This document shows positions 2,990-5,377 of a DNA stretch of 13,318 bases, in pieces. Position numbers and translations under genes: made by a program. The DNA is from Promethearchaeota archaeon (GTDB lineage: Archaea; Asgardarchaeota; Lokiarchaeia; Sigyniarchaeales; SOKP01), in assembly GCA_048941015.1 (NCBI GenBank), contig JBHLNZ010000078.1, positions 1-13,318 of the forward strand, given 5' to 3'. Below the pieces are notes generated by a model, which had not been told where the DNA came from, searched no databases, and saw only the letters and a program-made list of their open reading frames with translations. Position 1 is the first letter of the stretch, and the number at the start of each line of letters is the position of its first letter.

Positions 2990-5377
2990 ATGGAAGTTAA
3001 TTACAAGATGAAATGTTTATTTTGTGAAAATGAAAAAATTGATTTCACCTGTGAGAGATGCAAATCAAGTTTTTGTATAAACCATATGGCTACAACGGAA
3101 CAATGGATTTGTAAAAAACATAATCATTTCTATCCCAAAGCAAGCGCTGCTGAAAAGAATTATCGTTGTACTATCGTTGAAAATAGTAAATGCCCAGAAT
3201 GCAGCGCTTTATTAAAACTAGAAAGATTATCATCTGGTCAGTATTATTTAGAGTGCACGGATCCAAACTGTGCCTGGAATTCATATTTAAAAACACCCGG
3301 TTTATTTTTCCCTACAAAGGAGAGATTAGCAAGAGAAGCCACAAAATATAACCTAATCCAAGGATATAAACTAGATTTGTGTCGCAGATCTCTTAAACAC
3401 ATAATTGGAAAAGAAATATGTCCAAATTGCTTTTTGGAGCTTTTAAGAAGATCACATATTACTAACTTTTCCACGATTATGAATTCATTTAATATTGCTG
3501 CTCCTCAGATGATCAAACTAATTAATCAATATATTGATGAAGATCGTATTTATGGCATCATAGATCAAAAAAATCAGATGTTTTACTATATTTCTCCAGA
3601 AATGAGAGAAAAAGTATTAGCAAAAATTCAAAATGATGGTATCATTAAAGTAGTTGACTTAAGTCAAATGCTAGATATGAGCTCTGAAATAGCTTTGAAA
3701 GTCATTTATAAATTGATTAGTCAGTATCAAATAAAGGGTTCATTTTCTCAAAATAAGCAGTTTTATTATACTCAGAAGTATATCATGGATGGCTTAATCA
3801 ATGAAATAAATAAAAAAGGAAGAATCTCCATTACAGATATAGCAAACAATTTTGATATTCCAACTGAATTGACTAAATCATTCTGTGTTAATTTGATGAG
3901 AACCTCTGCAATTAATGCTTTTTTTGCAGATAGAGGAAACGAGATTATTACACATGGTGAGATTTATAAGGAGATTCAGGATTTTGCCAAAAAAGCAGGA
4001 TTATTCGAATTAAATAAACTTGCTAGAAATTTAAAAATAGCTGTTGAGCTAGCGAGAAAAAGTCTCCATGAATTGATTAAAAGCGGTTCAATAAAAGGTC
4101 TATTTACTCAAAGAAGAGAATTTATGACTAGTAAATTCTTAGAAACTAAAATAAAAGAAATTGCTAGAGCTTATAGAACTATGCCTTTACGTGAATTATC
4201 AAATAGATTAGGAGTGACTGAATCCAGCATTGAAGAGAATTTAGCCCAATTGATTGGACGTGGCGATATTGATGGTTACATTGATATGGCAAAACGTATC
4301 TTTGTAGCATATAGTGTACCTAAAACTCAAACTCCTTCTGAGCTAATAAAACAGAAAGTTATTAGTGATCTTGATGAAGATAAAGTTGAAGTAGTAAGAG
4401 ATTACGATTTTGAAGGAGGACAACTTCACTTTAAAGTAGCCGTTAGAAATAATAGTAGTATGGCAATTAATAATGTAAAAGTGATCTTAGACGTCCCTAC
4501 AAGCTATAAAATAAAACAACCTTTAATTAATATCCCTGTTATCGAATCGAAAAATTCAAGAGGTGTTGATTTCTACTTAGAACCTAAAGAATGTGGTATT
4601 TCAAATATTGGAGGTACAGTTATTTATAAAGATGCAAAAGGAAATAAGCATACACAACATATTCGGAAAAAGGAAGTACAAATAAAGTGCCCACTTGTTT
4701 GTACATCCCTAACTTCAATTGAGGATTGTCAAATTGCAATTCAAACTCTACCCAATGATGCACGCGCATTTTTGATAGCTGACTTAGATCCTCGATTAGC
4801 ATATAGAGCAGCAATTAGAACTTTAAAAAATTTTGAAACTAGCTCTGTTACCTCTCATGAAGGAACTGATGCTAAGGGTAATTATGAAGCAGAAGCTTGG
4901 TTTTGTTCAGAAGCGAAAGTTACTGGAGGACGAATTATTACAAGGATATATGTTTCTGAAAATAGCCAATCTCTAGAAGTACGTGTATGGTGTGGAAATT
5001 CTGGCCAATTAACTGGATTCTTAGCAAAAATCATTGAACTCTTGTTTGAAGAAATAAACATTATTAGAAAAATCAAATCAGAAGAGAGAGAAAAAACTAT
5101 TGATGTAATGGCTATTACACAAAATCTGGCTGAGATTTCTGATTATTGCATGCTTAGATGGAAAGCTCAAAACATTAGAAATAAACTTCATGATACATTT
5201 GTTAGGTTAAGGGGCCTTATTGGCGACAATCAAGCTATATTAGGAAGAATAGAGTTTTGGTTAACTCAATTGAATAAATATGGGAAAGATGATAAAATAA
5301 GCGATGAAGATGCCGATAAATTAGTGGAAGATGTTGAAAAATTTAAGAATGTAATTTCTCGAGCTATAAAATTATAG
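2990..5377 (+). CDS. Multidomain protein: Cys/His-rich Zn-finger region, five tandem winged-helix repeats (PCI/UFL1/DDRGK-like), Ig-like plus platform (adaptin-appendage-like) module and C-terminal helices
   Basis: 795-aa ORF with paired Cys/His in aa 9-147, an approximately 59-60 aa repeat ending in I-x-G-x-(I/F) wing motifs over aa 146-441, a beta-rich segment at aa 464-570 and an alpha/beta segment at aa 575-688. Alternative start is ATG 3008 (MKCLFC). Confidence 0.7.
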   Translation: MEVNYKMKCLFCENEKIDFTCERCKSSFCINHMATTEQWICKKHNHFYPKASAAEKNYRCTIVENSKCPECSALLKLERLSSGQYYLECTDPNCAWNSYLKTPGLFFPTKERLAREATKYNLIQGYKLDLCRRSLKHIIGKEICPNCFLELLRRSHITNFSTIMNSFNIAAPQMIKLINQYIDEDRIYGIIDQKNQMFYYISPEMREKVLAKIQNDGIIKVVDLSQMLDMSSEIALKVIYKLISQYQIKGSFSQNKQFYYTQKYIMDGLINEINKKGRISITDIANNFDIPTELTKSFCVNLMRTSAINAFFADRGNEIITHGEIYKEIQDFAKKAGLFELNKLARNLKIAVELARKSLHELIKSGSIKGLFTQRREFMTSKFLETKIKEIARAYRTMPLRELSNRLGVTESSIEENLAQLIGRGDIDGYIDMAKRIFVAYSVPKTQTPSELIKQKVISDLDEDKVEVVRDYDFEGGQLHFKVAVRNNSSMAINNVKVILDVPTSYKIKQPLINIPVIESKNSRGVDFYLEPKECGISNIGGTVIYKDAKGNKHTQHIRKKEVQIKCPLVCTSLTSIEDCQIAIQTLPNDARAFLIADLDPRLAYRAAIRTLKNFETSSVTSHEGTDAKGNYEAEAWFCSEAKVTGGRIITRIYVSENSQSLEVRVWCGNSGQLTGFLAKIIELLFEEINIIRKIKSEEREKTIDVMAITQNLAEISDYCMLRWKAQNIRNKLHDTFVRLRGLIGDNQAILGRIEFWLTQLNKYGKDDKISDEDADKLVEDVEKFKNVISRAIKL

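Follow-up and report, generated by a model that had tools for sequence, protein, structure and literature searches.

In the eukaryotic UFM1 E3 ligase, DDRGK1 and UFL1 together complete one winged helix, and the N-terminal helix of UFL1 binds UFC1. Here, we analyzed an archaeal protein whose predicted structure points to a single-chain form of this two-protein backbone. The protein is encoded in a stretch of 13,318 nucleotides, referred to below as the window, which comprises positions 1-13,318 of the forward strand of contig JBHLNZ010000078.1 from the Promethearchaeota archaeon assembly GCA_048941015.1. Its gene is an open reading frame (ORF) of 795 residues at positions 2990-5377 on the + strand, the only long ORF of the region, and we refer to the product as the scaffold. 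Residues are counted from the ATG at 2990, so that residues 146-441 correspond to positions 3425-4312. This segment forms a predicted array of five winged helices (WH1 to WH5), and profile matches together with a structure model indicate a common ancestry of this array and the DDRGK1-UFL1 backbone found in the UFM1 E3 ligase of eukaryotes.

An Asgard origin of UFL1 and DDRGK1 was described by Picchianti et al., who proposed that both are older than UFM1 and had a UFM1-independent role, and who reported UFM1, UFC1, UFSP2, and C53 to be exclusively eukaryotic. Koestlbacher et al. later described Ufm1 homologues in nine Asgard clades, and in the literature that we searched we found no report tying UFC1 to Asgard archaea. 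The closest described proteins are the Asgard fusions of Liu et al. (bioRxiv 10.1101/2020.10.19.343400, Fig. 5a), which combine Vps28/Vps23, adaptin/COPI C-terminal domains, and E3 UFM1-protein ligase 1. The authors predict a part in ubiquitin-dependent membrane remodelling and do not infer a precise function, and the main text describes neither a DDRGK-like first unit nor an intact composite winged helix or a split point. The domain combination of the scaffold agrees with these fusions as far as the text describes them, and its gene is a member of this published family. The first-pass annotation of the window had spoken of a possibly undescribed system; the architecture, however, is not undescribed, having been published by Liu et al. 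and the Asgard origin of UFL1 and DDRGK1 by Picchianti et al. The family and its architecture being known, our result is a confirmation and refinement, which adds two points, namely, that the split falls within WH2 and that scaffold and UFM1-type operon are phyletically decoupled. In the literature that we consulted, we did not find it stated that a DDRGK-like part and a UFL1-like part follow each other in one chain, with the eukaryotic break falling inside an intact WH2.

We modeled residues 130-450 with AlphaFold2 from a 23-row alignment spanning 20-93% identity, and the model reached a mean predicted local distance difference test (pLDDT) score of 89.9 and a predicted template modelling (pTM) score of 0.75. 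It contains five consecutive units of the order helix, strand, helix, helix, strand, strand, located at residues 145-200, 203-261, 262-321, 322-380, and 381-440. Five winged-helix repeats of ~59-60 residues between residues ~146 and 441 had been proposed from the sequence, and the boundaries of the modeled units agree with them within 1-2 residues. Identity of the later repeats to the first is low (9-18%), yet their similarity can also be traced in the sequence: in Smith-Waterman comparisons of each pair against 500 shuffles, 7 of the 10 pairs were matched by ≤10 shuffles (for example, WH2-WH4, z 12, and WH3-WH4, z 9).

As for the sequence profiles, three Pfam families stood far above their cut-offs. 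PCI (PF01399) was the top Pfam match, with 80.4 bits against a cut-off of 22 (E 1.1e-22). E3_UFM1_ligase (PF09743) scored 63.7 bits against 23.2 and paired residues 231-443 with profile positions 22-237 of 272, and DDRGK (PF09756) scored 61.7 bits against 27.8 and paired residues 146-224 with profile positions 102-179 of 188. The DDRGK match thus gives way to the UFL1 match along the chain in that order, as expected of the two eukaryotic proteins joined end to end. Generic helix-turn-helix (HTH) families all remained at ≤22 bits, under their own cut-offs, so that the preference for PCI, UFL1, and DDRGK over generic HTH profiles is pronounced (80.4, 63.7, and 61.7 bits versus ≤22). The same three families matched full-length relatives that are 41-47% identical to the scaffold, and PF09743 gave 0 matches in 14 control genomes. 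When all PDB sequences were searched with phmmer, the matches were confined to the human DDRGK1-UFL1 chimera 8b9x (E 5.6e-7), to chains of DDRGK1, and to one eS25 chain of marginal score. The first-pass annotation had drawn a parallel between the segment IYGIIDQKNQ and DDRGK1 and a resemblance of the later repeats to UFL1 winged helices. HMMER yields the same alignment of this segment against PDB DDRGK1 and DDRGK1-UFL1 chimera chains, and the E3_UFM1_ligase match over residues 231-443 bears out the second point.

We then compared the model with known structures. In a Foldseek search of the PDB, 8b9x ranked first (E 9e-15, target-normalized TM-score 0.73), with a superposition at a root-mean-square deviation (rmsd) of 3.4 Å over 248 columns, followed by UFL1 in 60S complexes (8qfc, 8ohd, and 9gy4; E ~1e-13), while SelB (1lva) appeared at E 4e-6. 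By VIA-align, 8b9x superposed with Z 16.8 and an rmsd of 3.3 Å over 240 of 255 residues, with WH1-WH4 behaving as one rigid body and chain 8b9x_B pairing with model residues 9-253 (residues 138-382 of the protein). When 48,161 representative PDB chains were scanned with the model, 8b9x came first at this same Z of 16.8, and the runner-up reached Z 10.8. The four-winged-helix arrangement of SelB differs from that of the array (Z 8.9, rmsd 12.8 Å). The comparison of inter-repeat packing with UFL1-DDRGK1 that had been proposed for this locus therefore separates the two possibilities: the model lies at 3.3 Å from the chimera and at 12.8 Å from a SelB-type array, which indicates that the predicted fold and inter-repeat packing are shared preferentially with the UFM1-ligase backbone.

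The same alignments locate the point at which the eukaryotic scaffold is divided. The HMMER alignment to 8b9x continues uninterrupted across the DDRGK1/UFL1 junction of the chimera, and this junction maps inside WH2, between helix 2 and helix 3, where the archaeal chain is 6 residues shorter. In terms of the eukaryotic backbone, WH1 (residues 145-202; positions 3422-3595, + strand as for all parts of the gene) is equivalent to the winged helix of DDRGK1, which is complete there, as supported by the Pfam DDRGK match, phmmer, and the model. WH2 (residues 203-261; 3596-3772) corresponds, in intact form, to the composite winged helix to which DDRGK1 and UFL1 each contribute a part, in line with the HMMER alignment and the superposition. 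WH3 and WH4 (residues 262-321 and 322-380; 3773-4129) correspond to the first two complete UFL1 winged helices (Pfam E3_UFM1_ligase, 8b9x), with WH5 continuing the series of first UFL1 winged helices. We read WH2 as intact in this protein and the single chain as the unsplit form of the two-protein scaffold, as far as alignment and model can tell.

Compared with UFL1-DDRGK1 (UFBP1; PDB 8b9x, 8c0d, 8ohd, and 8qfc), the unit order and the packing over four units are alike, and both are noncatalytic scaffold-type modules. There are clear differences as well. UFL1-DDRGK1 consists of two chains that complete a shared winged helix, whereas the Asgard scaffold is one uninterrupted chain; DDRGK1 has a membrane anchor, whereas the scaffold lacks a transmembrane anchor and carries zinc ribbons in that place; and where UFL1 continues into its C-terminal region, the scaffold has an appendage and a Vps28-like tail, the UFL1 profile match stopping at position 237 of 272. 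Moreover, UFL1 carries its UFC1-binding N-terminal helix at the site where helix 2 of WH2 leads into helix 3 in the scaffold, and neither the model nor the alignment shows an inserted helix there. An equivalent element may lie elsewhere in the protein.

WH5 (residues 381-441; 4130-4312) raises the question of whether the scaffold could instead be a subunit of a PCI complex, assembling via its winged helices into a horseshoe like those of the proteasome lid, COP9 signalosome (CSN), or eIF3 together with a JAMM partner. The Pfam PCI profile matches four separate stretches of the protein, the best of them at residues 380-440 (profile positions 22-82 of 84), PCI is also the NCBI name of most relatives, and superpositions of WH5 on CSN4 and on subunits of the lid lie at 1.0-1.4 Å. 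Its best structural match is CSN4 (4d10_D; Z 11.8, rmsd 1.2 Å over 64 residues), followed by proteasome lid chain 5l4k_S (Z 11.7), which agrees with the earlier proposal that repeat 5 fits the PCI winged-helix pattern. WH5 also lies inside the UFL1 profile match. However, since generic winged HTH proteins reach Z 8-10 in the 48,161-chain scan, the PCI preference predicted for WH5 is real but modest. Each PCI match is confined to the winged-helix part of the profile, with WH5 and, less so, WH2-WH4 covering that half. The helical-repeat half is lacking: PCI proteins are defined by a helical-repeat solenoid ahead of the winged helix, whereas in the model, with five winged helices in a row, each of them follows another winged helix or the zinc module. 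The whole array also fits the UFL1-DDRGK1 chimera far better than PCI structures (Z 16.8 versus ≤12.7). We consider membership in a PCI-type complex very improbable.

A second alternative is that the array binds nucleic acid, either as a DNA-binding regulator or as a SelB-like RNA or ribosome binder. Some relatives are annotated automatically as 'Lrp family transcriptional regulator' or 'ribosomal protein S25', there are weak sub-threshold matches to HTH families and eS25, and winged-helix arrays of SelB and Pol III/TFIIIC appear in the Foldseek list (E 4e-6 to 1e-4). With a pI of 9.3 and a net charge of +8, the array is mildly basic, and the titles of PDB entries 8qfc and 8ohd place the UFL1-DDRGK1 backbone of eukaryotes on the 60S subunit. 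Set against this, all generic HTH families fall below their cut-offs while PCI, UFL1, and DDRGK reach 60-80 bits, the packing of SelB is not common to the two arrays at an rmsd of 12.8 Å, and a regulator is not built with an appendage and a Vps28-like tail fused to it. A nucleic-acid-binding array thus appears distinctly unlikely, if somewhat less so than a PCI-type subunit. In a 14-row alignment reaching down to 26% identity, G370, F372, T373, Q374, E377, and F378 in the wing of WH4 are invariant or near-invariant; this wing is the most conserved patch of the array and, by conservation, the best candidate for a functional surface. The wing segment, GLFTQRREF (residues 370-378), lies at positions 4097-4123.

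The array is flanked by further regions on both sides. The N-terminal region (residues 7-144; 3008-3421, with the start taken from a 789-residue relative) matched 0 Pfam families over its 144 residues, and the 14-row alignment reveals near-invariant C9, C12, C21, C24, C29, H32, C41, C60, C68, C71, C89, C131, C144, and C147, which we take as zinc-binding. Residues 442-795 were modeled separately with AlphaFold2 at a pLDDT of 86.4, giving a beta-sandwich, an alpha/beta platform, and four long helices. Residues 442-465 (4313-4384) form a low-confidence linker (pLDDT <50, residues 1-20 of the C-terminal model). The appendage that follows, made up of the beta-sandwich (residues 466-572) and the platform (residues 573-670; together 4385-4999), matched the COPI appendage (9qpq_H, E 8e-11) and the beta2-adaptin appendage (1e42, E 9e-10) over ~240 aligned columns with target-normalized TM-scores of 0.49-0.55; gamma-COP, alpha-adaptin, and BBSome subunits also matched (E 8e-11 to 1e-7 across the appendages). 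The sandwich-plus-platform fold is thus like that of adaptin, COPI, and BBSome appendages (Foldseek E 8e-11 to 1e-9), although the Asgard appendage is not borne on an adaptin trunk. A fusion of zinc fingers and a coat-type appendage to the array had been proposed from the letters of the sequence, and the conserved cysteines and histidine and the COPI/adaptin structural matches support it.

The C-terminal region (residues 671-795 plus the stop codon; 5000-5377) has four helices in the model and is a candidate for a domain like the C-terminal one of Vps28. Against a cut-off of 24.5 bits, Pfam VPS28 scored 22.8 with hmmscan and 25.8 when the genome was searched, covering profile positions 87-182 of 188, and reached 29.4 bits in relative P0122, which is 47% identical. 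The match of the C-terminal helical bundle to ESCRT-I Vps28 thus lies around the cut-off, and the N-terminal Vps28 core that pairs with Vps23 is missing. We found no transmembrane segment (maximum 19-residue Kyte-Doolittle mean 1.37) and 0 Pfam matches to enzyme families in the protein; the scaffold is without a catalytic cysteine, RING, or enzyme domain. A separate Vps28 gene is present in the genome on contig C119. The gene and a 227-residue frame ~7 kb away lie at C119:7257-7511 and C119:14377-15057, and the frame weakly matches the platform-plus-helices part of the scaffold (E 6e-5). A search of the genome for paralogues of the appendage and tail gave only two weak matches (E ~1e-4), and we therefore discarded the notion that it harbors an expanded adaptor family.

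We next considered the genomic setting in which the scaffold would act. A survey of the genes in the 13,318-nucleotide window revealed no E1, E2, or ubiquitin-like protein (Ubl) gene, as the first-pass annotation had stated. Its suggestion to look for UFM1-, UBA5-, and UFC1-like genes in the rest of the genome was fruitful: a UFM1-type operon is located on contig C91, while the scaffold gene itself is on C19. The operon (contig C91:20000-39999, locus L002, positions 8354-12436, + strand) encodes an E1, a JAMM protease, a Ubl, an E2, and a conserved 360-residue protein. The last of these is the first in the operon and has no Pfam family or solved relative except for a weak C-terminal zinc ribbon. 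The best solved relative of the ThiF-type E1 is UBA5 (E 1e-48, 169 bits, versus 111 bits for MoeB), and the JAMM protease carries a 250-residue extension. The E2 belongs to the UFC1 family, with a near-invariant ICHEH cysteine and UFC1 proteins as its only solved relatives; 10 of 11 members of its family match Pfam UFC1, the best at E 1.9e-10, and a PDB search with the family profile led to UFC1 alone (E 2e-6). The Ubl has 88 residues and the C terminus RGIVG. Against the PDB, phmmer and the family profile gave weak UFM1 rows (E 0.24-1.8), and its Atlas leads are ubiquitin and Rad60-SLD (0.88-0.90), so that the sequence is only suggestive of a UFM1-like modifier. Pfam Ufm1 (PF03671) and the UFSP peptidase (PF07910) gave 0 matches in this genome. 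Since PF03671 was above its cut-off in 0 of the 301 Asgard genomes of our sample, we regard the Pfam Ufm1 model as blind to Asgard modifiers. No recognizable E3 is encoded in the operon.

The operon is kept at ten other Asgard loci, and in four of them the Ubl and E2 are fused in single frames of 273-302 residues (L031:7766-8584 +, L032:7581-8399 +, L027:6514-7419 +, and L030:7319-8146 -, each from a different genome). In these fusions, the terminal VG of the Ubl runs directly into the E2, and a protease, presumably the adjoining JAMM, would therefore be needed to release the modifier. Other arrangements were seen in single genomes. In G190, a 303-residue frame (L041:1177-2085 +) holds two tandem copies of the operon Ubl family (profile E 6.6e-13) and is among the few weak Pfam Ufm1 matches in the phylum sample. 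In G065, of the same genus as the source genome, a 60-residue remnant of a UFC1-like E2 with three stop codons (C2:54873-55052) gives the operon the appearance of decay. A search for a Rosetta-stone fusion joining the E2 to a winged-helix array was unsuccessful, as the only large fusion pairs E2 and Ubl with SIR2-like and TPR parts. This 897-residue frame (G270, contig C100, L024:5834-8524 -) starts from a SIR2-like domain and TPR repeats, followed by a UFC1-like E2 in which Ser replaces the catalytic Cys, and its C-terminal domain is Ubl-like but without a terminal Gly, a layout that resembles defense-type proteins. For the operon, an assignment to a recognized defense system was rejected, since PADLOC gave only generic E1/JAB similarity to CBASS Cap2/Cap3-type models, far weaker than the similarity to UBA5.

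A third alternative is that the scaffold is the working E3-like component of an archaeal UFM1-type cascade, which would bind the charged UFC1-like E2 and direct the VG-ended modifier, so that full UFMylation would be pre-eukaryotic. The same genome supplies a UBA5-like E1, a JAMM protease, a Ubl ending in RGIVG, and an E2 whose family profile and Pfam matches lead to UFC1; the operon lacks a recognizable E3 of its own; and all 12 E2-bearing genomes of the family contain the scaffold. To weigh this, we searched the 301 Asgard genomes for both the scaffold arm and the UFC1-like E2. The scaffold arm was found in 62 of the 69 genomes of the family of the source genome (this genome counted); for the sister family within the order, the count was 6 of 7. 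The E2, by contrast, was found in 12 of 69 and 0 of 7, respectively. Hence, 50 of the 62 scaffold-bearing family genomes have no E2, and, unlike the UFL1-DDRGK1 ligase, the scaffold occurs mostly in genomes without a UFC1-like E2. It is unlikely that copies of the E2 were overlooked in the family, because the E2 query detects copies that are 36-50% identical in other families at E 1e-40 or better. Conversely, the E2 occurs in four other families, of which f14, f16, and f26 are without any PF09743 match. The association between scaffold and E2 within families was not significant (Fisher p 0.34 and 0.19), and these figures even overstate the evidence, because related genomes are not independent.

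Further observations point in the same direction. The scaffold and E2 genes are never adjacent (C19 versus C91 here, and 40 kb apart in G040), WH2 is without an inserted UFC1-binding helix between helix 2 and helix 3, and the similarity of the Ubl to UFM1 is suggestive at most (E 0.24-1.8). Because most scaffold genomes lack the operon, a link between the job of the scaffold and the UFM1-type operon is doubtful, and the phyletic mismatch weakens the E3-hub proposal of the first-pass annotation. We judge the role of a working E3 in the cascade to be unlikely, and the same applies to an obligate UFM1-ligase role. In a related scenario, the scaffold would be the ancestral unsplit UFM1 E3, still active in operon-bearing genomes, where it might tag, for example, ribosomes or ESCRT-bound cargo, with DDRGK1 and UFL1 having arisen by fission inside WH2. 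We give this scenario a similarly small chance; if it is true, the complete UFMylation pathway is older than eukaryotes. The genome also encodes canonical UBC-type E2s (contigs C29, C50, and C90), two of which adjoin E1 genes, and these E2s together with the separate Vps28 mean that other partners are available to the scaffold.

Taken together, these data lead us to favor, as reasonably probable, a conserved stand-alone scaffold of ~790 residues of the Loki type, whose winged-helix arm is the unsplit DDRGK1-UFL1 backbone and which serves as a noncatalytic protein-binding adaptor with a job probably outside the UFM1-type operon. In such an adaptor, the winged helices would form a rigid rod whose first helix anchors the zinc module, and together they would provide a binding surface for a partner or cargo. 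Like the ears of adaptin and COPI, the appendage would recruit accessory proteins through short motifs, while ESCRT-type membrane machinery would be reached through the Vps28-like tail.

The distribution of the family is in keeping with a conserved stand-alone protein. In the family and sister family, the arm always lies within an open frame of ~790-830 residues. Relatives at 73-99% identity fall into >120 clusters, and the named ones come from Lokiarchaeota/Promethearchaeota metagenome bins; their automatic names are mostly PCI (NCBI), besides the Lrp and S25 labels. Similar winged-helix arrays in other Asgard lineages have quite different architectures of 252-1400 residues, which suggests that the array is a widely reused module and that the 790-residue Loki family keeps the clearest DDRGK1-then-UFL1 order.

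Several points weigh against the adaptor reading. The VPS28 match of this protein is marginal (22.8-25.8 bits versus 24.5) and covers the C-terminal domain only. Taken one by one, the winged helices are similar to many DNA-binding proteins as well (Z 8-10), and the mildly basic array (pI 9.3, net +8) leaves room for contact with nucleic acid or the ribosome. All 12 of the 12 family genomes with a UFC1-like E2 also carry the scaffold, which is compatible with a facultative role in the cascade. Finally, the scaffold is not essential and is dispensable in some close relatives, because six genomes of the same genus (G057, G099, G121, G198, G264, and G300) gave no match to the scaffold arm with the query used, nor any PF09743 match; three of these six are 95-99% complete.

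With regard to the locus itself, the window is AT-rich (GC 24-34%), and an FttA/aCPSF1 gene is among its other genes. We detected no conserved gene neighbor common to the window and the two relative loci examined. In-frame ATG codons are present at both 2990, the first, and 3008, and a TATA-like AT-rich stretch lies at ~2948-2962. Since a called protein that is 99% identical to the scaffold has 789 residues and begins at M7, translation probably starts from the ATG at 3008 rather than from that at 2990.

For the biology of this family, a natural single chain with a predicted intact WH2 offers a simple origin of the split winged helix of the eukaryotic ligase, namely, fission of an Asgard scaffold, and it offers a stable, soluble model protein for the UFM1-ligase backbone. 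The occurrence of UBA5-like and UFC1-like enzymes in the same genome makes a link between scaffold and cascade before eukaryotes directly testable. The phyletic data indicate that the main job of the scaffold lies elsewhere, in line with the UFM1-independent ancestral role that has been proposed for UFL1 and DDRGK1.

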